Shown here piece by piece: positions 780 to 44,649 of a stretch of 45,999 bases of DNA. Below the pieces are notes generated by a model. It saw only the letters and a program-made list of their open reading frames with translations, was not told the DNA's origin and searched no databases. Numbering within the stretch: position 1 is the first letter of the stretch; each line of letters starts with the position of its first letter. Both the position numbers and the translations under genes were made by a program. This stretch comes from a virus: UHGV virus genome UHGV-1315733; one strand, given 5' to 3'.

Positions 780-865
780 TCTCCTTAAATACTTATAGTT
801 CTGACTTAATGTTAATACAGCTAATTATGATATTTATGCAATCTTAATTTAAGTGTACTGGATTT

Positions 866-1153
866 TTGGGAAATGATTGTACCCATATTGAAGTCATAGA
901 TGAAATTAGCAATAAATTACAATATATTGTTATTGATTTAGGCACTATCAGTCTAGGTGAATCGGGATATTATCGCGTCAGTGATAATGAAAAATATCCG
1001 ATCTATACAAAAATAGTAGAAATCTCTTATTATTCATTAATAACACCAATTTCAGCAATAAATATATATCGTGGCGAAAACGGTGGTACTTATGTTTTCG
1101 GGTCTCCTAATACAGAAATACGAGATTTACAAATTCGGTGTTGGTATTGGTAA
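866..1153 (+). pseudogene. 5'-truncated duplicate of the RBP gene (silent cassette F). Outer boundary of the shufflon.
   Basis: 'IEVIDEISNKLQ' parallels 'LIGAVNELNSNKQ' in the expressed RBP. The C-terminus (ENGGTYVFGSPNTEIRD) matches cassette C (ENEPYVFSPKISTLTDSD). Ends in TAA TAA at site A. A degenerate site 'tagcaataaa' lies at 907-916. Confidence 0.45.
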
Positions 1154-1155
1154 TA

Positions 1156-1164
1156 AAATAGCAA
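1156..1164 (+). repeat. Shufflon recombination core, site A (AAATAGCAA, plus orientation)
   Basis: One of five exact copies of the 9-mer between 1.1 and 3.9 kb. Reading frame +1 gives 'aat agc aag' = NSK, which starts cassette A. The only plus-oriented site. Confidence 0.6.
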
Positions 1165-1429
1165 GACACAATCTGGTACAACTGGAGCTGTAGAAATTGC
1201 AGCAAACAGTACGCAAACAGTGGCTGTCGTTTTTAAAAAGCCATTCAATATCATACCGACAGTCGTGTGTACTTTGAAAAGTGGCTCAAACATTGCTACG
1301 TATGGTGATTTGACTGCGTTTGTAGATTACGCTTCTGTAACAAAAAATGGCTTTACAATAAAGCTTTCAAACGCTTGTACCACATCAGGTGCAAAACCAA
1401 GCATTTCTTGGATTGCAACCGTATCCTAA
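1157..1429 (+). other. Silent RBP C-terminal cassette A (90 codons, no start codon of its own)
   Basis: Open frame NSKTQSGTTGAVEIAANSTQTVAVVFKKPFNII...SWIATVS* begins at site A. Homologous to cassette B and the same length. ORF-track 1220..1429 is its GTG-initiated tail. Confidence 0.55.
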
Positions 1430-1554
1430 AATAACAAAAGCGTGATTTTTAACCGTATACACTCCCTATTTCATCACCAACACGACTTTTTTAAAAATGC
1501 ATCATTTTTACATATCTGTAAAACATAAATTTAATAAAAAAGAGCATAGCAAAC

Positions 1555-1580
1555 AAGCCATCGAGAAATGGCTTTTAAAA
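1555..1580. terminator. Hairpin plus T/A tract between cassette A and the recombinase gene (bidirectional)
   Basis: agccat-cgagaa-atggct followed by tttaaaaaa. Confidence 0.4.
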
Positions 1581-1603
1581 AATCAATATTGAATTAAGTC
1601 GTT

Positions 1604-2605
1604 TTATGCTATGTATCTTCTAAAAGATGCTTTTACATTAGATTCACTTACAGTTACATACATCATGGTTGTATCCGGCTTTTGGTGTCCGGCATAAGCC
1701 TGAATCTCTTGTAGCGGTATTCCTCTACTTCCAGCATCCGTGAGTAGGGTTCTTCGGAACTTATGCGGATGCGCATGAATATCTGTCTTTTTACCCAGTT
1801 TCGACAGCATTGACCATATAGCTTCCTTTCCCATTCGATTATGTGGTTTTCGATTTGATACAAATAACGCTGGATTCATATCATCCCTTGACATAAGATA
1901 CTTCTTGAGATGATATGCGCATTCATCCGTCAGATACACTTTTCTCTCTTTCTTTCCTTTTTCTCCGTAAATGATTACTTCCCTGTTTCCCCAGTCGATA
2001 TCACTACGATTCAGAGCTGTTACCTCACCGATACGTGCTGCTGTGGAGTACAAAAATTCCATAATTGCCACATCTCTCTGACTCTTAGCATTGCAACGTA
2101 GATGCTCCCTCTCTGCGGATGTAAACGGCTTTTTAATGCGCTGTGGCACTTTCATGTGCTTGATGCGTCTCATTGGATTCTTGCTGATAAATCCCTCGTC
2201 AGAAAGCCATCCAAAGAATGATGAAAAGTATCTTCTAAGCGTGTCCATGTACGAGATAGACACTTTCCTTGTCTCCTGATACATAGCAAGGTAGTAGCGG
2301 ATATCGTTTGTGGTTATGTCCTCAAATCTCTTGTTGAGATAGTTGACTAGCTTGGTTACACAGTCCACATAGCGGTCAATCGTACCTTGTGAGCAGTTCT
2401 CCAAGCGTTTACTTGCAATGAACAATTTGAGAATCTTATCCCAGTGAGATTGACTTGTTACCAATGAGGTACATTCCTCTTGAAGCTTAACTCCGTGGAA
2501 CGAAATATACAGCACATTCTCCAATTTGTGCATCTGTTCCTCGGTCAGTTCCTCTTGCATCATGTTTACAACATTTTTGATTATCATGTTAATGTCTTTT
2601 TCCAT
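1604..2605 (-). CDS. Tyrosine site-specific recombinase (XerD/Rci-like); candidate shufflon recombinase
   Basis: 333 aa. Arg box (FLYSTAARIGE), HxxR box (HPHKFRRT), catalytic Tyr region (TTMMYVTVS). Sits inside the cassette array, as the recombinase does in hsdS and Rci shufflons. Confidence 0.8.
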   Translation of the reverse strand: MEKDINMIIKNVVNMMQEELTEEQMHKLENVLYISFHGVKLQEECTSLVTSQSHWDKILKLFIASKRLENCSQGTIDRYVDCVTKLVNYLNKRFEDITTNDIRYYLAMYQETRKVSISYMDTLRRYFSSFFGWLSDEGFISKNPMRRIKHMKVPQRIKKPFTSAEREHLRCNAKSQRDVAIMEFLYSTAARIGEVTALNRSDIDWGNREVIIYGEKGKKERKVYLTDECAYHLKKYLMSRDDMNPALFVSNRKPHNRMGKEAIWSMLSKLGKKTDIHAHPHKFRRTLLTDAGSRGIPLQEIQAYAGHQKPDTTMMYVTVSESNVKASFRRYIA

Positions 2606-2700
2606 AAAAACACCCCTTTCTAAGCCAATTATGACTCAAAAAGAGGTGAAATTAAATGCTTTATTTCGGTTCATGAAATAGGGAGTTGATAATTTCCATC

Positions 2701-2973
2701 TTATGTCAAAGTGATTTTATATTGCGTTTTTCCAAAGCAGATTATTCCAATCTTATAACTGTTAGAGGTATTATTTTTCAACGTGATCGTATTGTAATCT
2801 TTTGATATTGAAGCGGTTACAGAAGCATCGACATTGATTGGCGAAAGGTATCCATTATTAAACCAATACATTGTTTTATTTATAGCTATTAATAATGACG
2901 TATGTCTATAGTCGTTCACAGCTAAAGTAACTGTCTGATTACCTGCTACACGTGTGTCGGCTACCTTGCTATT
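2701..2973 (-). other. Silent RBP cassette B (90 codons)
   Basis: Frame open from site B: (R)LNSKVADTRVAGNQTVTLAVNDYRH...KITLT*. ORF-track 2701..2919 is its C-terminal part. Homologous to cassette A. Confidence 0.55.
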
Positions 2974-2974
2974 T
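2966..2974 (-). repeat. Shufflon core, site B (TTGCTATTT on the plus strand)
   Basis: Exact 9-mer. The TAG inside the core is the stop of cassette D in frame 0. Frame +1 starts cassette B with NSK. Confidence 0.6.
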
Positions 2975-3226
2975 AATCTTTAGCGTTATAATTTTGAAAG
3001 TAAAAGCCCCTGTTGGACTGTTGTTTACAAAGCATAAAGACCAATTATTTGTTCCTTCTGTACCACTCACACCTCGTGAGATAGTGTATATCCATCCATT
3101 TCTATCTATTGATTGGATTGAAATAATCATGTATTCATCTGCATTCACACCTAAATCATACGTATCTTTTCCAGATTCGGCAGTGATAACTTTGTTAACA
3201 GATTCGATTATAGGAATATTGCTATT
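2969..3226 (-). other. Silent RBP cassette D (85 codons)
   Basis: NSNIPIIESVNKVITAESGKDTYDLGVNADEYMIISIQSIDRNGWIYTISRGVSGTEGTNNWSLCFVNNSPTGAFTFKIITLKIK*, translated by hand. Starts at site D and stops at the TAG in site B. Confidence 0.5.
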
Positions 3227-3227
3227 T
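3219..3227 (-). repeat. Shufflon core, site D
   Basis: Exact 'taaaatagcaa', identical to site A over 11 nt. Lies 3 nt after the stop of cassette C. Confidence 0.6.
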
Positions 3228-3230
3228 TAC

Positions 3231-3617
3231 TTAACAGATTTTGTCCATATCTGAATCCGTTAATGTTGAAATCTTTGGAGAAAAAACATAAGGTTCGTTT
3301 TCTGAATAGTAAGCAAGTATTTGTATTTGTAAAAGTTGTACTGACCGTTCTACCTTAATATAAATATGCAGTACGTTGTTACTTACTTTAAATCCAACTT
3401 TCATTCCTGCATTTTGCTTATTCATATTGACAGCATCACATCTATCTATATAATTTCTAGATGCATCAACACCATATTTTACAGAATAGATGTCTTCGCC
3501 AAACGCAACTAAAAGACTGGAAATATTCCACGTCGTATAACTAAAAGTTACTATCTCGACCCATGTATTAGAACCTATTCCATGAAGTAAGGCTTTATCT
3601 GATGTTGCATTGCTATT
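3231..3617 (-). other. Silent RBP cassette C (127 codons)
   Basis: NSNATSDKALLHGIGSNTWVEIVTFSYTTWNISS...DSDMDKIC*. Its last 64 aa equal ORF-track 3231..3425. Begins at site C. Confidence 0.55.
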
Positions 3618-3618
3618 T
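3610..3618 (-). repeat. Shufflon core, site C
   Basis: Exact 9-mer that overlaps the TAA stop of the expressed RBP gene (gaa taa ata gca atg). Confidence 0.6.
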
Positions 3619-4054
3619 ATTCAAAATAAAAGAATGAGATATATACATTCATGTTACTTGTCGAGTTGCCACTAAGAAAACTGGTAGTTGCTTTCCAATA
3701 ATTATTTTCACTACTTACAAAAGGTTTGATAATTGCGCTATTACTTCTGTAAGATACAATAATCGCTTTTCTGTCTATCTCCGTAGTTATAATGCCTTGT
3801 TTGTCTGCCAAGTATGTTTTGCTGACACTCTTTAATGCCCCCTGTTTATTGCTATTTAATTCATTAACTGCCCCGATCAAAGTCTTGTTAGTTGTTCCTA
3901 ACTTCGCGATAACTGCCGTAGTCATCTTATCGACAACATAATCCCATATCTTGTCCATCAGTGTACGCTTGTTTGCTTTACCGTCCGTGTCGAGAATCAT
4001 TAACTCATCATTGTCTTTCAGTGCTTCTTTAGTTGTGTACTTTGTCCATTCCAT
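3617..4054 (-). CDS. Receptor-binding-type small tail protein: constant 66-aa N-terminus fused to the currently expressed cassette E (79 aa)
   Basis: 145 aa. Lies downstream of the tail genes. Internal site E (ELNSNKQ) sits at aa 65-71. Size and layout resemble TP901-1-type RBPs (N-terminal anchor plus swappable head domain). Confidence 0.55.
   Translation of the reverse strand: MEWTKYTTKEALKDNDELMILDTDGKANKRTLMDKIWDYVVDKMTTAVIAKLGTTNKTLIGAVNELNSNKQGALKSVSKTYLADKQGIITTEIDRKAIIVSYRSNSAIIKPFVSSENNYWKATTSFLSGNSTSNMNVYISFFYFE
3849..3857 (-). repeat. Shufflon core, site E, inside the expressed RBP gene
   Basis: 'gaattaaatagcaataaac' read in frame +1 gives ELNSNKQ. This is the fusion point between the constant and variable parts. 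Confidence 0.6.
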
Positions 4055-4111
4055 GATTAATTCTCCTTTATTGAATCATTTATTAAAAGGGTAAGAGCAT
4101 TATTCATGCCC

Positions 4112-4312
4112 TTACGCCTCGTCAACCTTGTTTACTGTGATAAATTTTCTAATCGCATCTACATGAGTTTTGAGTTCAGCATCAACGATATAGAACGATT
4201 TCTTATTGTTGTGCGATACAAGATTTCCACTCTCGTCAATCTCGTCATAAGTAAATGTAGCTCTGTCCATTCCATTTACATTTAAAATTGAAAAACCACT
4301 AAGCTGTTTCAT
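4112..4312 (-). CDS. Small tail-associated protein (66 aa)
   Basis: Its start overlaps the stop of the 1678-aa tail protein. XkdX-like position. No motif recognised. Confidence 0.35.
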   Translation of the reverse strand: MKQLSGFSILNVNGMDRATFTYDEIDESGNLVSHNNKKSFYIVDAELKTHVDAIRKFITVNKVDEA

Positions 4313-7300
4313 TTAAAAGTTCCTCCTGTTCCTTAATCAAGGTTTCTAGTTCTGCGTTTAATATGTTCTCAGGGCTTTCAGGTAATTTTTCTTCCCTGTC
4401 AACATCTTCCTCAAGATTTACATATTCGTAATCTTTCTGTTTTGCTTTCAGTTCCCATGCAAATTTCAGATTCGGAGTTCCGTGCACAATGAAGTAATTC
4501 TCTTCCTTCTTTTCAATCCACAAATCTCCTTTCCCTTCTTTCTGCAAGAATACCTGGTACTCAATGCGTGTTGTTACGGTTTCCGTGAAGATATCTCCGA
4601 TTTCAACGATACATTCACCGTTCTCATCAGTAATTCCTTCACCGATGTCTCCAAACATTGGCGAAGCTGTTTCGTAGCAATATTGAAGTCTGTTTGAATA
4701 ATTCTCTGTTGGAACAACACGGTTTTTAGTTCCAGTTGTTTTTATTTCTCTTGGGCTTATATCTACATAATCATTAATATAATTACTTCCATTAATTCTA
4801 ATTGAAAGGCAACCTGTTGAGTTCTCGCTAATGCTGAATGTGTACGATTTTACTGTTGACATTGCATCAGACCATCCTTGTAAATCCTCAGCCCATCCAA
4901 TAGAGAAGCATTCCGGGGAAATTGAAGAACCGTATCCCCTTCCATTATTAGATGCTTTCATTCTCAAACCATGAAACCAACCGCCCATAAGGTCAACAAC
5001 CATACTGTCTGATGCGAGAAGTCCCATATTAGTATTATCAATATGCATCCCCATGCTTCCGATAGTGAATATTTCTTTCGAATTGTTACGGCCAACGATG
5101 AGCGCAGACGCTTTTTCTTTATCTAAATATATCGTGCTTCCATAAATCGAGCCTTTTTTGATGTTCAGTCCATCTTTATCCCATTTACCAACTTCCGCTC
5201 CTATGGCATCTAGTATCTGTATTGAGCCATTTTCATTGTTTACACCTCCCAATGTAAGTGTACCGCCCTTGCCATAAGAGAAGTTGATATACAACTGATC
5301 GCCTTGCATATATATCCCTTGTTTCTTCCCGTTATCAGTAAGTCTGTTAAACACTTCTTCGGAAGTCAGAGATTTGTTTAGCTTTTCTACAGCTGAATCG
5401 TCAGTATACTTAGTGGCTTTTGTCCAATCAGAAGAAACATAGTTGCCGCTAGCTCTTGCGGTTTTACATCTCATCAAGTCACCAGTGTCTCCTTGCGTCC
5501 AAAGGTCGCCAACATCATAAGGTGGCACAGGAGTTGTAATAAAGTTTCTTCTCTTACCGTCTGCGGTATCTTGCGCCTTTGATGCTGTTTCCATCGCAGA
5601 TACGATGTCTGCATCTTTCACTCTCACCCACTGATAAGATGTATCGACTTTCATATAGCGGTAAGTGAAACCTTTGTTCTTCCAAAAGAAGAGGTCACCA
5701 ACATGCTTCTGTCTTTCGTAAGCTGTAGTCCACTCAGATGCTGGATGGTTTGAATTCGCAGGCTCATAATCGTAATAGTACGTATCAATCTTTCCATCAA
5801 TCTGATTTTGGATATCTTCAATTTTCGGATCATAAATGTTTTCGATGAAGTCCGTTACTGTAGAATCGTCTGTATAATTATCTTTCTTCTGCCAATCACT
5901 TGCTACATACTCACCAGTTTCTCTGTCCTTTAGGCAGACAAGGATATCATTTCCAGTGAAATACAAATCATCCACGCTATACGGTGGCTTTGGCTGTGTT
6001 GAGAAAATCTGCGCTTTACCGTCAATCTCATCGAATACAGAGTCTGGAACTGGCATTTCTTCCCAATTTCCGCTTCTGTAGATGTATTCATCACCAGTTT
6101 TGGAATTCTTCCACAAGTCACCCTCATGAGTTGCTTTCTCGGTTTCCACAGTGATTGTGATATTTTTTCCACTAACATCTAAGATTTCATTCCCGTTTAT
6201 ATCGCAAAGAGGCTGTGTTTCTTTTCCAGTCCAATTAAGTGACGGGTCAGTAGGTTGGAACCAAGTTTCTATCTTCTGATCAATCTGATTCTTGATATTC
6301 TCAAGGTCGGCAGCATAAGTATTCTTAACAAAGTTATTGATTGCGGAATCATCTGTGTACTTGGTAGCCTTAACCCAATCGGATGCGACATAATCTCCGC
6401 TCTGACGCGAGGTCACGCATCGCATAAGATCTCCGTTTGTGCCTTGTACCCACAAGTCATCCTTATCATAAGGTGGATAAGGAGTTACACTGAATACACG
6501 TTTCTTTGTGACAGCAAGGTTCTTTGCAGCTTTCGCATCCGCATCACTTAACTTTGACCACGCTGAACCGTTCCAACGCATTGTTTCTTCGGTTTTTGAG
6601 TTGTACCATAAGTCGCCAGTATGCTTTGCTTTCAGTTCAGCTGTTGTCCATGAAGCTGCCGGATCAGCAGATTGATTGTATGTCTCAATCTTGCCATCAA
6701 TCTGATTCTGCAAGTCCTTATTGACTGTTTCCAGCTCTTTCTGTACCTCATTGGCTCTTGTATCGTCCGTGTACTTTGATGCCTTTTCCCAGTCTGATGC
6801 CGAGAAAGAAGCCGATTCACTTCTTGCAACACAGCAACGCATGATGTCACCATCATCACCCTGTACCCAAAGGTCACCTATGTCGTAAGGTGGCTGTGGA
6901 GTCACTACAAAGACTCTACGTTTATGATCTGCTGTATCCTGTGCTTTCTCCGCAGCTGCAAGTGCTTTTGAAATATCTGTATCCTGTACGATCTGCCACT
7001 TCCAAACCGCTCCGTCCTGTAAGAATCGGTAGGAATATCCAGTGGACTTCCAGAAGAAGAGATCACCTTCGTGGTTTTTTCTCTGCTCGTTGGTTGTCCA
7101 ATTCACAGCCGGTTCGTTCTGTAAGCTAGGTTCGTGGTCATAGAACCATGTTTCAATCTGTCCATCAATCTGACTCTGTAATTCCGCAATCTTTGGATCA
7201 TATACCGCAGAAATGAAGGTATTCAGTCCGCTATCGTCAGTGTACTTGGTTTTCTTCTGCCAGTCGGACTTTACACAACTTCCTTTATCTCTGCTTTCTA

Positions 7301-9335
7301 CACAAGTGAGAAGTTCCTGTGTATCTGCATCAAACCATAAGTCACCAACACGATACGGTGGAACAGGAGTGTTAATGAATATCTGTGCTTTGCCATCAAT
7401 CTCGTCAAAAACTTCATCCGGCACTTGCATCTTCATCCACTGACCGCCACGATAAATATACTCATCGTTCGTAGACAGATCTTTCCACAAGTCTCCTTCA
7501 TGTTCAGCCTTAGACTCTTCATACAGCAAAATGATTTCATTTCCGTTTACGTCAAGGATTGATTCGCCATTGACATCGCACCATGCCATTTCAACAGTTC
7601 CACCCCAGTTTACAGATGGATCTGTGCTCTGATACCATGTTTCAATCTTGTTCCGGACGGAGTTTTTAATCTCGTCCATATCTGTCTTGTAAATGTTAGT
7701 TACAAAATCATCTACAATACCATTGGAAATATCTTCCACAGACTTACCGGTGATGGATATTGACTCTGCATTGATGGTAACTCGTCCTGTCTCCGTATCA
7801 GCATAGAAGGTAATGTTTCCATTCTTGTCTTTTACAGTGAGAGAACCTGAGTTGATATAATCAGCATTAATACCGATAGCATACAAGATTCTTGTAATAA
7901 GGTCTCCTGTTAGGAATAATCCGTAAGGATATGTCTTACCGCCATCACTTGATATACCGATAGCTTCAGATGTGACCTTGATTACATTCTTGGACTCTTC
8001 TACTGTCGGCTTATCATGAATGTATGAGATTACGCTTCCGTCCGGCTGTACAACTTCTGTAGAATACATTCCAGAAGCACTCTCAAGTGTCTTATTCAGA
8101 TTATCGACAGCTGCTTCAAATTCTGTCTTATTCTGCTTGATTTCCTTTTTGGCTTTCTCATACACTTTTGTAGCTTCGCTGTAATAAGTGCTCTTCTGCC
8201 GTTCCGGATCCTTGATTCCGCAAGAAAATGAACTGCTGCCAAGATAATTAAACTCAAGAGATGTGATAAATGTTGGATAAACTTTGTCTTTCCGGTCTAC
8301 CACGCAAGCCAGATCCATGAATTCGATCGTTGGATCAGGGAAGAATTCTCCACTAAAACCTCTCAGCTTAACTCCGATCAATACATCTCCAATCAGATTG
8401 ATTGCATCATCTTCATGTCCTTCAATAAGAGGATTCGTGATTTCAAGTGCATAATCATCTGTACCTCTTATTAAGATTGTACTCTCGTTTTCTACTTTCT
8501 TTGTGGTCGCAATTCCAGTGATTACAACAGGATCTGTGCTAATGTCCGGATCTGACTGATAGTCCATCAAAATGCTATAGCCATCATCTTCCACTAAGTC
8601 ATCCCTATTTGTAATCTTCGATATTGCAGAAAAGTCGTAACTCTTAATAACAAGTGTTCCGTTCTGAATCACAGCATTACCAACGGAAAGCATTGCTATA
8701 TATCCGATTACTTCTCGGCAAGTCACTTTTTCCGGAGCCTGTTCAATCACGAAATCGTCATTGTTAAACTTCGGACTTCCAAGCATGATGTTACATGTAC
8801 TACACGCTTCTCTTAGAAGCTGCCCAGCTGTTGTTGGATAAGATAGCTTAGACGTGAAGTCTGCATCTGCTTTGTACATTGAATCATAACCTACAAGTTC
8901 TATCGTATCTCCAACCGCTGTTGGCTCAAGTACTGTAAATGTACCCTCGTTCAATCTCTCGATTCTTGATTTCGTCAGCATAATCGTGTTGCCATTGACA
9001 TCGAGAATTTCCTCACCTTTCACATCTCTCCATGCATCATAGCTTCTACTTTCGATGTCAGCTTCAGTGAAGAGTGAAATCTGTGCATAGTAAAAATCAT
9101 ACTTGGAAAATCTCTCATCGATGTTATCAATGACAAGCGTAACGGACTTGGAGAGAGCGGATCCCAGTGGGAATCCATCTCCTCCGTCTTCTGCGTATCC
9201 ATTACCGCTTATGAAGAAATCGTTATCCGAATCAAGATATAGTTTCTCACCGTTTTTCAGTGTAATCGATGCGTAAGCATAGAACGGACCGCCTGACTTT
9301 ATGATGTTTTTGAATTCGTTGCTTACATTCTTCAT
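4299..9335 (-). CDS. Large tail protein (1678 aa): Tal-like N-terminus, long array of about 90-270-aa repeats, lectin/fibre-like C-terminus
   Basis: Single uninterrupted ORF directly after the TMP and a Dit-like gene. Repeats of PPYxxGDLWxQGxxGDLMRC...SDWxKATKYTDDS...QIDGKIETW. Confidence 0.65.
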   Translation of the reverse strand: MKNVSNEFKNIIKSGGPFYAYASITLKNGEKLYLDSDNDFFISGNGYAEDGGDGFPLGSALSKSVTLVIDNIDERFSKYDFYYAQISLFTEADIESRSYDAWRDVKGEEILDVNGNTIMLTKSRIERLNEGTFTVLEPTAVGDTIELVGYDSMYKADADFTSKLSYPTTAGQLLREACSTCNIMLGSPKFNNDDFVIEQAPEKVTCREVIGYIAMLSVGNAVIQNGTLVIKSYDFSAISKITNRDDLVEDDGYSILMDYQSDPDISTDPVVITGIATTKKVENESTILIRGTDDYALEITNPLIEGHEDDAINLIGDVLIGVKLRGFSGEFFPDPTIEFMDLACVVDRKDKVYPTFITSLEFNYLGSSSFSCGIKDPERQKSTYYSEATKVYEKAKKEIKQNKTEFEAAVDNLNKTLESASGMYSTEVVQPDGSVISYIHDKPTVEESKNVIKVTSEAIGISSDGGKTYPYGLFLTGDLITRILYAIGINADYINSGSLTVKDKNGNITFYADTETGRVTINAESISITGKSVEDISNGIVDDFVTNIYKTDMDEIKNSVRNKIETWYQSTDPSVNWGGTVEMAWCDVNGESILDVNGNEIILLYEESKAEHEGDLWKDLSTNDEYIYRGGQWMKMQVPDEVFDEIDGKAQIFINTPVPPYRVGDLWFDADTQELLTCVESRDKGSCVKSDWQKKTKYTDDSGLNTFISAVYDPKIAELQSQIDGQIETWFYDHEPSLQNEPAVNWTTNEQRKNHEGDLFFWKSTGYSYRFLQDGAVWKWQIVQDTDISKALAAAEKAQDTADHKRRVFVVTPQPPYDIGDLWVQGDDGDIMRCCVARSESASFSASDWEKASKYTDDTRANEVQKELETVNKDLQNQIDGKIETYNQSADPAASWTTAELKAKHTGDLWYNSKTEETMRWNGSAWSKLSDADAKAAKNLAVTKKRVFSVTPYPPYDKDDLWVQGTNGDLMRCVTSRQSGDYVASDWVKATKYTDDSAINNFVKNTYAADLENIKNQIDQKIETWFQPTDPSLNWTGKETQPLCDINGNEILDVSGKNITITVETEKATHEGDLWKNSKTGDEYIYRSGNWEEMPVPDSVFDEIDGKAQIFSTQPKPPYSVDDLYFTGNDILVCLKDRETGEYVASDWQKKDNYTDDSTVTDFIENIYDPKIEDIQNQIDGKIDTYYYDYEPANSNHPASEWTTAYERQKHVGDLFFWKNKGFTYRYMKVDTSYQWVRVKDADIVSAMETASKAQDTADGKRRNFITTPVPPYDVGDLWTQGDTGDLMRCKTARASGNYVSSDWTKATKYTDDSAVEKLNKSLTSEEVFNRLTDNGKKQGIYMQGDQLYINFSYGKGGTLTLGGVNNENGSIQILDAIGAEVGKWDKDGLNIKKGSIYGSTIYLDKEKASALIVGRNNSKEIFTIGSMGMHIDNTNMGLLASDSMVVDLMGGWFHGLRMKASNNGRGYGSSISPECFSIGWAEDLQGWSDAMSTVKSYTFSISENSTGCLSIRINGSNYINDYVDISPREIKTTGTKNRVVPTENYSNRLQYCYETASPMFGDIGEGITDENGECIVEIGDIFTETVTTRIEYQVFLQKEGKGDLWIEKKEENYFIVHGTPNLKFAWELKAKQKDYEYVNLEEDVDREEKLPESPENILNAELETLIKEQEELLNETA
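5350..7660 (-). repeat. In-frame tandem super-repeats inside the tail-protein gene (two about 270-aa units, each with about 95-aa subunits)
   Basis: Protein segments at roughly aa 565-826 and aa 1023-1293 align along their full length. Coordinates are approximate. Confidence 0.5.
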
Positions 9336-17628: not shown

Positions 17629-17696
17629 GTTTGTATTCTCCTTTAACTTTTTAAGGTCAACGATTATCTCTGATTGATAACCGTTCTATCGCATGA

Positions 17697-18308
17697 CTAC
17701 CATACTGCCGGTGGTGTGTACACTGGAGTCTTACCATCTCCTCCACCTTTGTTTGTAGGTGTTGTGAAGGTCGGCACTTTCGGAGCATCTGTCGGTGCAA
17801 ATGCATCTTTCTTTGACTCTCTCAGCTCGTTCATGTAATCATCGAGTCCGAGGATTTTTTCACCTTCACGTTTCAGCCCTTTCTCTTTGATCATGCTGAT
17901 AATTCCTGTCTTAGCAAACTCAGATGTGAATTTCTCACCTGCCAGTGCTTTGACCAGAGCATCATTGAAGTCTCTCTCTTCAATCTTTGCTGCATAATCT
18001 TTCTCGCTGTTCGCAAGTTTTGTCTGCCACTCTTTCTCTGCGGTCTCTGCTTTGGTTTTCCACTCATCACGTTCTTTTGTGATAGCATCAAAGTCTTTGC
18101 CCTCAAATCCTTCAAGTGTAGACTTGGCTGTGTCATACTGTGTTTGAATGTTGTCTCTTTCCTGTGTGACTGTATCAAGCTTTCTTCCCTGTTTCTCAAA
18201 CTCGGCAAGAGTCTTGTAATTCTCATTCACACCGGTTTCGATTGTTTTCTTCTGCTCATCTGTAATCTCAAGACCAGCATCGGAAAGAATCTGAATAATG
18301 TTTTTCAT
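17697..18308 (-). CDS. Scaffolding protein
   Basis: 203 aa. Highly charged and helical (KE-rich). Sits immediately upstream of the capsid gene. Confidence 0.65.
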   Translation of the reverse strand: MKNIIQILSDAGLEITDEQKKTIETGVNENYKTLAEFEKQGRKLDTVTQERDNIQTQYDTAKSTLEGFEGKDFDAITKERDEWKTKAETAEKEWQTKLANSEKDYAAKIEERDFNDALVKALAGEKFTSEFAKTGIISMIKEKGLKREGEKILGLDDYMNELRESKKDAFAPTDAPKVPTFTTPTNKGGGDGKTPVYTPPAVW

Positions 18309-18389
18309 GTTTCATATCCTCCTCAACGTATTTTATTAACCGTTTCGTCCACGGTAGGGATTCAGACAGATAAACCTCTGTCAGGGTAA

Positions 18390-18430
18390 TCGTGGTTGAG
18401 GGAGTCGAACCCTCATAGCCATTACCACGC
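18390..18430 (-). ncRNA. tRNA-like minihelix (acceptor stem plus canonical T-arm, no D or anticodon arms) within a 318-nt structured intergenic region
   Basis: Minus strand GCGTGGT-aatggctat-GAGGG-TTCGACT-CCCTC-AACCACG-A, with the conserved TTCGA T-loop. Flanked by further hairpins (GGACAGATG...CATCTGTTC and AGCCTAC...GTAGGCT). Confidence 0.4.
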
Positions 18431-18626
18431 AAGAACAGATGCTATAGAAAGGCAGATTCACATCTGTCCCCAGCTCCATTAGGAGCAAAGCCTACCGAGA
18501 TGTGCGATACCTCTTAACAGGATTCCCCTAGTAGGCTATTTTCTAAAAAAGGAGGCGCAAAAATATGATATAATCTTCACCCAATATCCATTATGAATGT
18601 TTTTGATTACTTCGTTGTACCCATCT

Positions 18627-19853
18627 TTAACTCTTTTTCGCACTTTCGTATCTTCTTGCAGCAGCTGCACTCTTCATAGCTTGCTTTCTGTCCCACCGTG
18701 CGACCTTCAACCGTTCTGCATACTCTCTTAGGTCATTCTCTTCGCAAAATGCACTGTACCGCTTGTTCTGAAGCTTCAATGTGTGAGCCTTGCGGTCCAA
18801 CATATTCTGCAATTCAAACCTTGCCTTATCATCCTTACAGTTATCAACAGCTGTCTGCAAGTTCTGTATCTTCCGCTTGGTGTCACGGATCCTACGCTCC
18901 TGTGCTCTCTGTTTCTTCTGCAATTCCTCAACCTTATGGTTGTCAGCAAGAGTTATCTTCTTATCCTCATAAGGATTGTTCACTCCGTCACCACTTCCAA
19001 ATGAGTGCCTACAGTTCCAACCGCACAAGCCTTCACCAGTTCCGAAACCAGTTGTCTTAACGAAGTCCGGGAATCTCTTATCCTTTCCACTTCGTGAGTA
19101 GAACCGTCCTTGCCACCACAAGTGATTGCCAGGATTCATTCCGCCATTACCAGTACGTGCTCCTAAGTGAGCAGACACAAGAACGGTATCCCAGTTCATT
19201 TCTTCCATTCTCTTCATGGAGATGTCGGCAGCTGCTTGTCCCACTCCTGTCCTCACGATCATCATCGTTGCTGACTCAATGCTCATTCTGTACCCAGTAG
19301 GATAGTTCACTTTGAGTCCTACTTCTGTGATATTGTTAATTACATCTCTGACCGCTTGTGTGTACGATACTGCACCGGTAGACACAAGATGGTAGGCATT
19401 GTCCATCTGATTGATGAAAGTCCTCTGTGCATCCAGTGCTGTGGTCCGTGTGAAGTTGTTCCATTCTCCGGCAGTAGCAAGGTAATCTCTCTCAAGGATC
19501 CTGAGCATGGTTGGAGATTGCATCAGTGCTGTTGGAGTGAGTCCGGCTGCAATATACACAGCATCATCCCATTTCAGAGTATTGATACCAGCATCGACAA
19601 ATGCATCCTTAATCTCTTTCTGCTGTAACTTTGTCTTGTCCGCTATTTCCTTCTGGATATCCTCTAGCAGTTCACCAGACTCTTGAAGCACTTGTATCTG
19701 CCATCGGTCTGTCTGTGTCAGCAGATAGTCCTCACCTCTGCCGAGTCTCTTCATGATTCTCTCGATGATCATGTCCATAATAGTGCGATGAAGGGACGAA
19801 GATATCTCCTCCGCCCCTTCTGTTATTCTTTGTAAGTATTCAGGTGTTAGCAT
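18627..19853 (-). CDS. Head morphogenesis protein (SPP1 gp7/Mu F-like minor head protein)
   Basis: 408 aa. Position after the portal region. C-terminal basic coiled-coil tail. Confidence 0.6.
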   Translation of the reverse strand: MLTPEYLQRITEGAEEISSSLHRTIMDMIIERIMKRLGRGEDYLLTQTDRWQIQVLQESGELLEDIQKEIADKTKLQQKEIKDAFVDAGINTLKWDDAVYIAAGLTPTALMQSPTMLRILERDYLATAGEWNNFTRTTALDAQRTFINQMDNAYHLVSTGAVSYTQAVRDVINNITEVGLKVNYPTGYRMSIESATMMIVRTGVGQAAADISMKRMEEMNWDTVLVSAHLGARTGNGGMNPGNHLWWQGRFYSRSGKDKRFPDFVKTTGFGTGEGLCGWNCRHSFGSGDGVNNPYEDKKITLADNHKVEELQKKQRAQERRIRDTKRKIQNLQTAVDNCKDDKARFELQNMLDRKAHTLKLQNKRYSAFCEENDLREYAERLKVARWDRKQAMKSAAAARRYESAKKS

Positions 19854-21587: not shown

Positions 21588-21659
21588 TCGGAACGGGAGG
21601 TATCGAACCTCCGACACGCTGGATATAAGCCAGTTGCTCTACCACTGAGCTACGTTCCG
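21588..21659 (-). tRNA. tRNA, anticodon UAU (Ile2-type, reads AUA)
   Basis: Minus strand CGGAACG-TA-GCTC-AGTGGTA-GAGC-A-ACTGG-CTTATAT-CCAGC-GTGTC-GGAGG-TTCGATA-CCTCC-CGTTCCG-A. Full cloverleaf with one A27.C43 mismatch, U33, A37 and discriminator A. No CCA is encoded. Confidence 0.7.
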
Positions 21660-22378
21660 TTAGCAGGTGGACAGTAATCAAACCACCTCTGCTACGGTTC
21701 TTTAGACAGTACGAAGAAAATAATAAACACTGTGACTATCGTGCAAAATGTGAATATTAAATCTTTGACGGAACTCCGCAGCTAAAATCCGTCTGTTACA
21801 TTTTTTCAAACACAATTAGGTCTTCACCTTATTCAATCATGGTAAAAGTCATATTCTGCCACTGTGATGATAGGTCTGAGCTTCTGAGAGCGACTCTTGG
21901 CTTCCTACCACTGTCAAAGCACACATGGGATTGATACCCATAAATTTCACGGTTCTTTCAGATAATGTTTTCGCCTATTTTGCACCCTTTGCATTGCTCA
22001 TATCGAAATTGCTTATTTAAGAACTTGCCATACCGCTACTTTAACGAACCTCTTGTGTTATACTCCGATTTCTCGGATTCAAGGCAAATCAGCTTATTGA
22101 GAATTTCCAGTTAGTCCGTAGTCTCTCACACCACTCACATCACTGGATTATTTCTGCACCGCAGACGTCTATTAATCACTGACCACAAGGATTCTGCATT
22201 TGACTTCTCTATGATGATACACTGCAAGGCATTGTTGATGGTTTCCGTCTTCACCAATGGAATCACTCCCACTAGAAAGAATCGGCTTATCCAATATCTC
22301 GAACAAGCCTATCTCGTCACCATTGCATCTCGGCATGACTGAAAAATCACTCTTCACCGAGGTAATCATATTTGAAAA

Positions 22379-22456
22379 TAGCCGTATAAGGATTTGAACC
22401 TCAATCTTTCACTTGAGTAGGGTAGAATGAACGCTTTGCCGTTAAGCTATACGGCT
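22379..22456 (-). pseudogene. Degenerate tRNA-like sequence (good acceptor, D-arm and T-arm; no foldable anticodon arm)
   Basis: AGCCGTA-TA-GCTT-AACGGCA-AAGC...TGAGG-TTCAAAT-CCTTA-TACGGCT. The central 28 nt do not form a 5-bp stem with a 7-nt loop. Confidence 0.35.
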
Positions 22457-22520
22457 TCCAACTACACTGTAGTAAGGAAAAATTTGTTATGAAAAAGATT
22501 TTTTCTCCGAGTTTCGGAGA

Positions 22521-22594
22521 GAGCTACCGTTCGGATTCGAACCGAAACCCTGTTGATTAAAAGTCAACCGCTCTACCATTTGAGCTATGATAGC
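22521..22594 (-). tRNA. tRNA-Lys (anticodon UUU)
   Basis: GCTATCA-TA-GCTC-AAATGGTA-GAGC-G-GTTGA-CTTTTAA-TCAAC-AGGGT-TTCGG-TTCGAAT-CCGAA-CGGTAGC-T. One A.C mismatch at the base of the acceptor stem. Confidence 0.6.
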
Positions 22595-22598
22595 TTAA

Positions 22599-22635
22599 AG
22601 CATCGAGCGTGAACCAAGAAAAAACGCTCGATGCT
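22599..22635. terminator. Perfect 11-bp inverted repeat hairpin between the tRNA array and the portal gene
   Basis: agcatcgagcg-tgaaccaagaaaaaa-cgctcgatgct followed by atattatttt. Could terminate either strand. Confidence 0.35.
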
Positions 22636-41507: not shown

Positions 41508-42488
41508 ATGAAACCTAGTCAATTTAATCTCATCAGAAGAATGTGGATTCGTGCAACAAGGTACAGATACCGTGAAAAGATTGCAAGAAAGAACAGGACG
41601 AAGGAATTAAAGCTTATCCGCAAGCAAGAAAAGAATGCTCAGAGAGTTTGGAGAAAAGAACAACGAAAGTTATGCACACAAATGTATCCAGTTCCTAAAG
41701 TTATCCACACTTCTCGCTTCTATAGGAATATAACTATTGCTATTTTCTTTGGATGGTTTATTCTTTGGTTCTATGTGATAAGTATACCTACAAGACCATC
41801 TGACAGTTTTCTTGATTCACTATTTCTTCTTTCTGGGTGGGTTATGTTTATTCCATACCCACTGATTCGATATCTGACAAAGAAGAAAAAAGAGACAGTA
41901 AAACAGGATATGATGAACTGTCCTTTCTGTGGATCCGTGATAGTAAGCAGTTGTAACTTCTGCACAGCTTGCGGTTCTTCATTGATTCCGCAGCAACCCA
42001 AAATTGATCCAATGCCAAAAGAACAAAGAAAGGAGAAGATTTGTTCAGCTTGTGGTTCTGTAATAGATATTAATTCTAAATTCTGTCCATGTTGCGGATA
42101 TAAGATTGTGAAGAAGGAAACAGCTATTCCTACTGGTATGAAATTCACATCGGACCATGTTGCTAATAGAAAAGTGATATATAGTCCTCCCAAATTTGAA
42201 ATAGAAGATACTCAACCAGTAACTAGCAAGCCTGTAGCAGAAATTATAGAAGAACCAGTACAAGATATCACCAAGGATGAAGAAGCTAAATCAACCAGCT
42301 TATCTAAAGAAGAAAGAGACGCGCTGATTCAATTCTACAAGGAACAATATAAACAGAAAAAGAGATTAGAGCAAAAAGCTAGGATGGATGAAAGTGATCG
42401 TCTTCGCAGAATTAAGAGTCAGAATTATAAACTTAAAAAGGAAGATGACAAGGAAAATCGTGACCAATATGATGAATTAACAAAATAA
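41508..42488 (+). CDS. Membrane protein with two C4 zinc ribbons and a Lys/Glu-rich tail (326 aa)
   Basis: Basic N-terminus, two TM helices, CPFCGSV...CNFCTACG and CSACGSV...CPCCGYK. RBS GAGGAA. Confidence 0.55.
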   Translation: MKPSQFNLIRRMWIRATRYRYREKIARKNRTKELKLIRKQEKNAQRVWRKEQRKLCTQMYPVPKVIHTSRFYRNITIAIFFGWFILWFYVISIPTRPSDSFLDSLFLLSGWVMFIPYPLIRYLTKKKKETVKQDMMNCPFCGSVIVSSCNFCTACGSSLIPQQPKIDPMPKEQRKEKICSACGSVIDINSKFCPCCGYKIVKKETAIPTGMKFTSDHVANRKVIYSPPKFEIEDTQPVTSKPVAEIIEEPVQDITKDEEAKSTSLSKEERDALIQFYKEQYKQKKRLEQKARMDESDRLRRIKSQNYKLKKEDDKENRDQYDELTK

Positions 42489-43415: not shown

Positions 43416-43545
43416 ATACACAACTCCGAAGAGCAATGCGAATTATATGAACAGTAATATTGTATCATCTTCGGAGCAGTCAATCAATCAGAACTGTTGT
43501 TCTATTGTATGGCTGTTATTTTTATACTTAAAAGGAGATGATTAT

Positions 43546-44649
43546 ATGGCAACAGCTAAGAAGTTACCTTCCGGATCCTGGAGATGTCAGGTATTCAGCC
43601 ACTATGAAATTGTCTTAGATAAAAACGGAAAACCTGTTATTGATCCGAAAACGAAGAAACAGAAACAGAAAAGAATCTATAAGTCTTTCACTTGTGATGA
43701 TCCATCGGCAAGAGGAAAAAGAAAAGCTGAAGCAATGGCTGCTGAATGGGCAGATAACAAAGAAATCAAGAAAGATGAAGAAGTACAAATGACTTTCGGT
43801 GATGCACTAGAAAAGTACATCCAGGAACGGTCCGCTGTCCTCTCACCGTCCAGCATCAGAAAGTACAAGAGTATGCAACGTAATTGCATGGTACCGCTCA
43901 AAGAGTATCAGCTAAAGGAAATCACACAAAGCGTAATTCAAAAGGTGATTAATAAGGCATCTACAGAGCTGTCACCTAAGTCTGTTCGTGACATGAATGG
44001 ACTGATCAGCGCGGTAATGAAAAGATTTCGTCCGGGAATTGTAATCAATATCACTCTTCCAAAAAAACTCAGGAGCAACATTTACATTCCTACAGAAGTG
44101 GACATTAAGAAGATTGTTCGTGCATCAGAAGGAACTATCATGGAAGTGCCAATTCTCCTCGCAGCGTTTGGAGCTATGCGAAGAGGTGAGATCTGTGCAT
44201 TACAGAAGTCCGACATCAAGAATCACACGATACACGTTACAAAAACAATGGTTATGAATGTTGAGGGCGAATGGATTGTGAAAGCACCTAAGTCTTATGC
44301 TGGTGACAGATATGTGAATTATCCATCATTCGTAATCGAGAAGTTCTTGGAACTTTCAACCGACACTGTAGACATGAATCCGAATACATTAACAACATCA
44401 TTTGGAAATCTCCTTAAGAAATTAGAGATACCTCACTTCCGATTCCACGACTTAAGGCATTACAACGCTTCTGTTCAACATGCGCTAGGAATACCAGATG
44501 CGTATATCATGCAATCTGGTGGATGGGGAAATGATTCGGTGCTGAAAGAAGTCTACCGTCACACTCTTCCGGACATGGAAGATAAAATGAATAAGATTGC
44601 AATCAACTATTTTGAGTCTATGCAACACGAAATGCAACACGAAACATAA
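43546..44649 (+). CDS. int: Tyrosine integrase
   Basis: Start trimmed to MATAKKLPSGSWR after RBS AAAGGAGA. C-terminal catalytic region FRFHDLRHY...VLKEVYRHT. Its 3' end overlaps the arm-type repeat. Confidence 0.85.
   Translation: MATAKKLPSGSWRCQVFSHYEIVLDKNGKPVIDPKTKKQKQKRIYKSFTCDDPSARGKRKAEAMAAEWADNKEIKKDEEVQMTFGDALEKYIQERSAVLSPSSIRKYKSMQRNCMVPLKEYQLKEITQSVIQKVINKASTELSPKSVRDMNGLISAVMKRFRPGIVINITLPKKLRSNIYIPTEVDIKKIVRASEGTIMEVPILLAAFGAMRRGEICALQKSDIKNHTIHVTKTMVMNVEGEWIVKAPKSYAGDRYVNYPSFVIEKFLELSTDTVDMNPNTLTTSFGNLLKKLEIPHFRFHDLRHYNASVQHALGIPDAYIMQSGGWGNDSVLKEVYRHTLPDMEDKMNKIAINYFESMQHEMQHET
44618..44641 (+). repeat. 24-bp direct repeat, copy 1 (ctatgcaacacgaaatgcaacacg, itself two tandem 12-mers); candidate integrase arm-type site
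   Basis: Exact second copy at 44835-44858. Encodes the last residues of Int (MQHEMQHE). Confidence 0.55.

Follow-up and report, generated by a model that had tools for sequence, protein, structure and literature searches.

A candidate multiple-inversion shufflon for tail-tip cassettes in a Mediterraneibacter faecis prophage

The virus genome UHGV-1315733, a 45,999-nucleotide (nt) stretch analyzed here over its whole length (the window), carries between its tail and lysis genes a small gene, a series of promoterless coding cassettes, and a gene for a tyrosine recombinase. The window is an apparently complete siphovirus-type prophage that encodes a large terminase, a portal, a tape measure of 1030 amino acids (aa), and proteins of 1678 aa (a tail protein) and 66 aa. 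These are followed by the small gene, its cassettes, and the genes for an XhlA-like protein and a holin, and a 400-aa integrase is encoded at the far end (43447..44649). The small gene shares strand and order with the tape-measure and 1678-aa tail genes and lies downstream of both. Sister loci run on into a GH25 endolysin and host genes. In these loci the flanking host gene for dihydrodipicolinate synthase (DHDPS), as well as several of the fusion proteins described below, is labeled Mediterraneibacter faecis in NCBI and UniRef, which identifies the host as a Lachnospiraceae species. We propose, with a probability of about 0.86, that the locus is a multiple-inversion shufflon in this prophage, in which a dedicated tyrosine recombinase swaps tail-tip cassettes. 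A recombinase-driven shufflon between positions 866 and 4054 had been suggested from the sequence alone (here called the original prediction), and several of its details are revised below.

The expressed small gene (3617..4054, minus strand) encodes 145 aa and, as had been predicted, contains one of the repeated sites (site E), where it reads ELNSNKQ. Its first 66 codons form a constant region and the remainder one of six cassettes, which are arranged in two arrays converging on the recombinase gene, in the order constant region-E-C-D-B, recombinase, A-G. Fusions of the constant region to a given cassette are written const-A, const-B, and so on, and L-numbers denote contigs or loci of the same or related prophages from public assemblies. 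The coding parts are as follows.

3858..4054, minus strand: constant region of the expressed small tail gene, with its ribosome-binding site, start codon, and codons 1-66 (MEWTKY...GAVNEL)
3617..3856, minus strand: cassette E, 79 aa, the currently expressed C-terminal head, from the open reading frame (ORF) and the const-E model
3231..3617, minus strand: silent cassette C, 128 aa; exact const-C fusion (194 aa) in public assemblies
2969..3226, minus strand: silent cassette D, 85 aa; exact const-D fusion (151 aa) on 12 contigs
2701..2973, minus strand: silent cassette B, 90 aa, linked at its 3' end to an r site (a second class of site, described below); exact const-B fusion (156 aa) found
1157..1429, plus strand: silent cassette A, 90 aa, with an H-type lectin domain; exact const-A fusion on 12 contigs
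905..1153, plus strand: silent cassette G, 82 aa; exact const-G fusion (148 aa) on 8 contigs, with a direct const-G join in L009

Each cassette opens at a copy of a short core sequence, which we call an S site.

3849..3857, minus strand: expression site S(E), core inside the expressed gene; here the constant region joins A, B, D, G, V, and others in sister loci
3610..3618, minus strand: site S(C), exact core
3219..3227, minus strand: site S(D); contigs L114 and L144 stop on its last base
2966..2974, minus strand: site S(B); contigs L125 and L126 stop on its last base
1156..1164, plus strand: site S(A), the only intact site opposite to the expression site
903..912, plus strand: terminal site adjoining the lysis genes, AAATTAGCAA, with a 1-nt insertion

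The five exact copies of the core, AAATAGCAA, lie within 1156-3857 at the positions and in the orientations originally given, against 0.78 copies expected in the whole 46-kb window, and six or more copies arose in 0 of 100 shuffles. One further exact copy at 41737-41745 (minus strand) is 38 kb away within a zinc-ribbon ORF (41508..42488). The frame opened there runs for just 24 codons, the copy has no partner close by, and it is probably due to chance. The degenerate sixth copy that had been placed at 907-916 does exist, but at 903-912, where it is a normal core with one inserted T. Since sister loci carry the exact core gatgAAATAGCAA at this terminal site, the window has acquired a 1-nt insertion. 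Across 111 unique sites the sequence logo was AT-n-AAATAGCAA, an asymmetric conserved stretch of 12 to 14 nt. Sites E, C, D, and B are direct repeats of each other, and site A alone is both intact and inverted relative to the expression site.

In the frame a aat agc aa, a promoterless ORF beginning N-S-(K/N) starts at all five sites, as had been claimed. The ORFs measure 90 aa (A), 90 aa (B), 85 aa (D), 128 aa (C, not the 127 first counted), and 79 aa (E), and together they cover 2701-3857 (minus strand) and 1157-1429 (plus strand). In this gene-dense window, a randomly chosen position and frame stays open for at least 79 codons in about 12% of cases, so that open frames at five of five sites would be expected by chance with a probability of about 2.5e-5. 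The claim that frame 0 (aaa tag caa) stops the preceding segment held at site B only; cassettes E, C, and G end at a TAA overlapping or ahead of the core. Nor could we uphold the mutual homology that had been proposed for the cassettes, as no BLASTP match at E<=0.01 was detected among the six in the window. ORF 866..1153 had been read as a 5'-truncated copy of the small gene marking the outer boundary of the system. We rejected this candidate: the holin-side flank upstream of the ORF aligned to the constant gene with a score equal to the shuffle mean, const-G fusions exist on 8 contigs, and the ORF is the sixth cassette, G.

Public assemblies contain natural rearrangements of these parts. The exact recombinase protein was recorded in 278 assembly blocks. 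In ten long loci, the recombinase gene occurred in either orientation relative to the tail/holin backbone, and the product of the small gene measured 156, 151, 148, 145, 105, or 73 aa. Window segments mapped onto sister loci reappeared as 100%-identical cassettes, reordered and reoriented, with all junctions at cores. Two loci were full-content permutations, one ordered const-E-D-G-A, recombinase, B-C (L008) and the other const-G-D-A, recombinase, B-E-C (L009); L003 read const-A, inverted recombinase, B-E. A breadth-first model that allowed inversions only between opposite sites led from the window to L008 in 4 steps and to L009 in 6. All six in silico fusions of the 66 constant residues to A, B, C, D, E, or G were found as exact proteins (contig counts of 12, 3, 12, 3, 6, and 8, the two counts of 12 belonging to const-A and const-D). 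Together with the core-joined permutations, these proteins bear out the prediction that the constant N terminus is fused in frame to alternative cassettes. A homology search returned 292 protein clusters, in which the constant N terminus is joined to dozens of different C termini; many of them matched the first 48% of the query at 96 to 100% identity and bore no relation to it beyond that point. Recombination of site E with any other site had also been proposed. Exchange with A does require a single inversion, but B, C, and D require two, and direct exchange of E with B, C, or D would delete DNA.

The cassette pool extends far beyond the window. IMG/VR contained 107 recombinase relatives, and 80 of these were retrieved. 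Loci with recombinases 60 to 100% identical to that of the window carried two arrays of Asn-Ser-framed cassettes of 75 to 110 aa converging on the recombinase gene. The core in these relatives was AAATAGCAA or AAATAGTAA, i.e., AAATAG(C/T)AA, with up to 16 copies counted in one locus. The 23 loci with a recombinase at least 99% identical held ∼50 cassette types in 36 sequence clusters. All of the ∼50 cassettes were open in the Asn-Ser frame, and the number of cassettes per locus ranged from 2 to 15 or more.

Most of this evidence comes from short-read metagenome assemblies, and the permutations could in principle be assembly artefacts at a short repeat. We assign this explanation a negligible probability: the repeat, at 9 nt, is much shorter than the k-mers used in assembly, identical in-frame junctions were recovered from independent pipelines (MEGAHIT, SPAdes, Logan, JGI, and NCBI records), and a fully open set of ∼50 cassettes also argues against it. 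The ends of certain contigs are informative in this respect. Besides the four contigs listed above that stop on the last base of a core (L114, L125, L126, and L144), L122 stops inside one, and L108 and L109 terminate in an r site. L126 is a 44.8-kb contig from ERZ27287567 that was assembled at k=141. Because a 9-nt repeat cannot break a k=141 assembly, contigs that end at cores indicate alternative continuations within one sample. Such ends are most simply taken as branch points at which one left flank would lead to two or more right flanks in mixed populations. Different isoforms were found only across neighboring accession numbers (for example, ERZ27287563, G; ERZ27287565, A; ERZ27287567, D).

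The arrangements might instead be slow evolutionary mosaics made by general (RecA or phage) recombination, with the 333-aa enzyme serving dimer resolution or a second integration. The arrangements were compared across samples and not inside a clone, cassette content varies by strain (2 to 15 or more), and chimeric locus L102 combines two clades, all of which speaks for such mosaics. However, the breakpoints are base exact at a sequence of 9 to 14 nt, far too short for homologous recombination, and the permuted segments are otherwise 100% identical. Contigs that end on the last base of cores, and a recombinase gene that lies between the arrays in 21 of 21 charted loci, flanked by a conserved yet clade-specific inverted pair, also speak against mosaics, and we regard this explanation as very improbable.

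The recombinase gene and the elements around it are as follows.

1604..2605, minus strand: XerC/D/XerA-like tyrosine recombinase, 333 aa, presumed invertase; Pfam Phage_integrase (3.6e-30) plus a SAM-like domain
2673..2686, plus strand: r site, arm upstream of the recombinase ORF, ATGAAATAGGGAGT; inverted repeat I1; junction swaps in sister loci
1461..1474, minus strand: r site, arm downstream of the recombinase ORF, ATGAAATAGGGAGT on the minus strand; contig L108 stops at its last base
2611..2648, minus strand: 17-bp stem-loop plus T-run, terminator-like; ends 5 nt before the recombinase ATG and covers the ribosome-binding site

The enzyme consists of a SAM-like core-binding domain and a catalytic domain, without an arm-binding domain. 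Its NCBIfam matches were to Xer, integron-integrase, and generic tyrosine-invertase models, all below the cut-off. In an alignment to P. abyssi XerA (4a8e), the catalytic R, K, HxxR, H, and Y (the last in ...TTMMYV) were kept; the original prediction that the recombinase is not a serine invertase was therefore correct. Given the separate canonical 400-aa integrase, the 333-aa enzyme is a second, dedicated recombinase. As had been noted for the window, its gene sits between site A and the B/D/C/E block, and a position between convergent cassette arrays was seen in 21 of 21 related loci with a charted layout. We infer that the product of 1604..2605 catalyzes the cassette exchanges.

These observations are consistent with the following mechanism. 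The constant 66-aa N terminus, a beta-hairpin and a long helix, ends at the asymmetric site AT-n-AAATAGCAA, with which the six promoterless cassettes, in two arrays facing the central recombinase, open in the same frame. Recombination between two oppositely oriented S sites would invert the intervening DNA, recombinase gene included, and thereby set another cassette behind the constant region; A would be one inversion away and B, C, and D two. Cassette G would be locked out in the window if the 1-nt insertion kills its site. Recombination between the two r sites would flip the recombinase gene alone.

The r sites, which the original prediction had not noted, form an inverted pair around the recombinase, with full arms at 1456-1474 and 2673-2691 and core ATGAAATAGGGAGT. 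In sister loci, the recombinase module between them was flipped independently of the cassettes. For example, const-B contigs L146 and L147 are base-identical from the tail gene through the last base of the r site and then run into opposite ends of the recombinase module; L130 and L131 diverge at the same base in the same manner. An inverted pair brackets the recombinase in every clade examined (60 to 100% recombinase identity), with one arm ∼80 nt before the ORF and the other ∼130 nt after it, for example at ∼5880-5940 and 7110-7140 in L026, L033, L069, and L090. Position is kept across clades but sequence differs: in other clades the r position is occupied by ATGAAATGGGAG, GAAATCGGAGATT, TAAATGGGAAGAGGAAAA, or ATTAAATCCGCAGTCTAT. 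A flipped recombinase module was also observed in L089, from the clade with 60% recombinase identity and a different r sequence.

The S and r sites share AT-n-AAAT(AG) and then diverge into AGCAAT (S) versus AGGGAG (r). Two rare products of deletion between an S and an r site, in which the recombinase has been lost (L104:4960-5300 and L110:3100-3162), differed at positions 7-8 (CA in S, GG in r), with the r version in L104 and the S version in L110; the hybrids keep AAATAGGGA or AAATAGCAA. These two prophages should be locked in the const-A form. Because mixed S and r versions at deletion junctions are as expected from a heteroduplex strand-exchange spacer, the site can be read as a conserved 7-nt arm, a ∼6-nt spacer, and an unconserved second arm. 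The bases that differ would then lie in the strand-exchange spacer, and spacer heterology probably keeps S and r apart. Spacer variants of lox provide a precedent for site incompatibility of this kind.

In 38 of 49 loci (48 distinct ones, as one contig had been counted twice), the recombinase gene pointed the same way as the constant gene, although each cassette inversion would reverse it; since the loci are not independent samples, this bias toward the co-directional state may only hint at selection or at resetting through the r switch. Judging from its sequence, the stem-loop at 2611-2648 may act as an attenuator. One tentative interpretation is that a single recombinase acts on two incompatible site classes and that the r flip is a governor, which would reset or silence the recombinase relative to incoming tail-gene transcription and so lock or unlock the tail-tip type. 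The conserved position of the r pair, flips in two clades, the co-directional bias, and the hairpin over the ribosome-binding site fit this interpretation, which we nevertheless hold to be doubtful. No description of such a two-class orthogonal r switch was found in the literature searched.

To what end the cassettes are exchanged depends on the role of the small protein. The AlphaFold model of const-E (mean predicted local distance difference test [pLDDT] score, 81) consists of a short beta-hairpin, a helix spanning residues 33-71 that ends at the site, and a head formed by a six-stranded beta-sandwich (residues 74-144; pLDDT, ∼90). Fold matches to this model were weak; those with names were mostly tips of tail fibers or tailspikes and included AP22 gp53, the Pam1 tailspike, pyocin fibers, and gp53-like C-terminal domains. 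When PDB sequences were searched with a const-E profile, no meaningful match emerged (best, AcrIIA4; E, 0.2). The likeness to receptor-binding proteins (RBPs) of the TP901-1/p2 type that had been suggested goes no further than a generic helix and beta-sandwich head, and the weak fold matches go to tail-fiber tips. const-A matched Pfam H_lectin (1.7e-8; 34.9 bits versus a cut-off of 24) and, over the C-terminal third, PHROG 14469, 'tail fiber protein' (1e-7). No Pfam or PHROG family was found for the other five isoforms. The best reading is that the small protein is a receptor-binding tail tip carried in the virion. Given heads that are diverse, with an H-type lectin among them, the purpose of the exchange is most likely to vary the carbohydrate receptor seen by the virion tail tip, i.e., host range.

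Alternatively, a genuine shufflon might act on something other than a virion RBP; the small gene might encode a surface lectin expressed by the lysogen, or an exclusion or lysis-module accessory protein. It is located at the boundary of the tail and lysis genes, after a terminator-like hairpin (4091-4115, minus strand) that separates it from the gene for the 66-aa protein, and its constant part is just 66 aa long. The lack of a Pfam or PHROG family for five of the six isoforms and the weakness of the fold matches would also suit such a target. Against it stand the strand and order shared with the tape-measure and 1678-aa tail genes, the const-A matches to H_lectin and to the C-terminal third of a tail-fiber PHROG, and named fold matches that are mostly to tail-fiber or tailspike tips. 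Published Rin systems, moreover, have the same layout at the RBP position (PMC6109161, PMC8778435). We consider a nonvirion target unlikely.

Several observations weigh against a shufflon of tail-tip cassettes driven by this recombinase. Switching within one clone or sample is suggested by contig ends, and no case of two different fusions in one sample was found among the ∼55 samples listed. Variants lacking cassettes or the recombinase exist (L002, L104, and L110), and the sites on each side are direct repeats; the complete loss of the recombinase in L104 and L110 demonstrates that deletions between direct repeats do occur, and the bias to inversion over deletion is not absolute. Catalysis by the product of 1604..2605 is presumed. 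Because a terminator-like hairpin separates the constant gene from the tail genes, it is uncertain whether this gene is expressed together with the tail operon. Finally, the predicted structure of const-A was unusable (pLDDT, 46) because its alignment was shallow.

The closest known counterpart is the Rin shufflon of Bifidobacterium breve and Bifidobacterium longum prophages, which has an armless tyrosine invertase, a constant part (Rc), variable parts (Rv), and asymmetric 11-bp rix sites; its inversions have been documented both by genome comparison and in read data (Mavrich et al. 2018, PMC6109161). Clade-1 prophages of Eggerthella lenta carry a Rin shufflon with an 8-bp repeat and some H-type lectin cassettes (PMC8778435). 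These siphophage and prophage systems run counter to the original prediction, which knew of no description of such an arrangement in Gram-positive siphophages, and, as the Rin shufflon is already published, the locus is not a new kind of system. The likeness is extensive. Both have a phage-encoded armless XerD-like tyrosine recombinase apart from the prophage integrase (the recombinases being likened at superfamily level only), a constant N terminus (in Rin that of the RBP, Rc) with promoterless variable cassettes (Rv) of ∼80 to 100 aa that show little mutual similarity, and a short asymmetric repeat (the 8- to 11-bp rix) in the gene and ahead of each cassette. In both, related genomes show inversions at the repeats and alternative full-length genes, and H-type lectin cassettes (in E. 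lenta) and human-gut Gram-positive hosts are shared as well.

The present locus is set apart from Rin by its host phylum, site sequence, short constant part, central recombinase, second site class, and large cassette pool. The host belongs to the Bacillota (Lachnospiraceae) rather than the Actinomycetota, the site AAATAGCAA is unrelated to the Rin sites TTCCCTAACCC and TTCCGTAT, and the constant part has 66 aa, compared to 168 aa or a large Rc. Whereas the Rin recombinase is encoded at the array edge, here its gene is central and inverted at every cassette event, which is an architectural and not a mechanistic difference. A second site class flips the recombinase gene alone, and the pool is far larger, with ∼50 types in 23 loci and the core occurring up to 16 times in one related locus. 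In the literature searched, nothing combined phage, shufflon, and Lachnospiraceae, and no description from a Bacillota phage was found.

Parallels also exist outside phages. In the R64/IncI shufflon, the tyrosine recombinase Rci acts at 19-bp sfx sites in pilV and swaps the C terminus of an adhesin on a constant N terminus. It likewise involves multiple inversion at asymmetric sites, of which one arm and the spacer are conserved, and alters specificity for surface receptors. Its target, however, is the tip adhesin of a conjugative pilus on a plasmid, rci lies outside the invertible segments, and Rci is strictly inversion biased; here the target is in a phage tail module, the 12- to 14-nt site is unrelated, and deletion variants were seen. 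Phase-variable type I restriction hsdS loci (for example, pneumococcal SpnD39III/creX) have a tyrosine recombinase gene among inverted target-recognition cassettes, and inversion shuffles specificity. There the target is a restriction specificity subunit and the repeats are longer and lie within coding homology; to our knowledge, no separate site class for the recombinase gene has been described in these loci.

Among phages, the Gin (Mu), Cin (P1), and Min (p15B) systems also use phage-encoded inversions to exchange the C terminus of a tail fiber for host range, Min with multiple cassettes. They are serine invertases that work with an enhancer and Fis, whereas the sole recombinase at this locus is of the tyrosine type (R-K-HxxR-H-Y). 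In contrast to a diversity-generating retroelement, the locus varies by whole-cassette exchange at fixed sites. An active multi-cassette tail-fiber shufflon has been described in a BV01-like phage of Phocaeicola vulgatus (2026 preprint, PMC13596623). It resembles the present locus in acting at the distal end of a carbohydrate-binding tail-fiber gene of a gut temperate phage, through 10-bp directional motifs and an adjacent recombinase; it differs in its Bacteroidota host, three cassettes giving six isoforms, motif TGGGAGAACT, and a recombinase that flanks the region.

Tyrosine-recombinase tail-tip shufflons would thus reach beyond phages of the Actinomycetota and be common in phages of abundant gut Lachnospiraceae, given 107 related loci in IMG/VR alone and the same recombinase in 278 public assembly blocks. 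One prophage could show many alternative carbohydrate-binding heads, which bears on host-range prediction and strain tracking, and contig breaks at the sites affect the assembly of gut viromes. Recombinase engineers may be interested in so short a site (a putative 7-nt arm and ∼6-nt spacer) and in the natural pair of incompatible site classes. The locus also bears on how armless tyrosine invertases favor inversion over deletion, the basis of this bias being an open question in the field.

At the margins of the family, no repeated-core arrays were detected around recombinases of 30 to 40% identity (Paenibacillus, Desulfosporosinus, and phages phiCp-D, TPELB_ph1, and phiCs5676-1). A tblastn search of a phage collection with the recombinase (E<=1e-20) matched only Clostridia-type and uncultured gut phages, and blastn of positions 800-4400 against 50,697 phage records gave no match. 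Two of the phages named above, both cultured, encode an XerC/D-like 'integrase' of 30% identity, phiCp-D of Clostridium perfringens at 21639-22616 (L127) and TPELB_ph1 of Terrisporobacter at 17645-18640 (L128). The enzyme occupies the same place in both, between the last tail gene and the holin, and TPELB_ph1 has a separate integrase. L011 (CAVBVT010000014.1), binned as 'Eggerthellaceae bacterium', has a recombinase 76% identical to that of the window and a locus G+C content of 43.6%. This G+C content is lower than expected for Eggerthellaceae, and a binning error is therefore suspected.

Other minor observations concern individual cassettes and sites. Cassette c4, found in L024, L029, and L032, encodes 279 aa, about three times the usual size, and stands behind the constant region in L029 and L032. 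L102 is chimeric (4698-7613): one side has a const-A expression site with a GCAA core and a window-type r site, and the other has five cassettes with GTAA cores, together with the r site typical of the clade whose recombinase is 93% identical. This locus may be partly inactive through mismatched sites. In proteins P0138 and P0140, an A-like lectin cassette without a stop codon reads through the next site into E (...IATVLWNSNKQGALK...), giving a two-head ORF.

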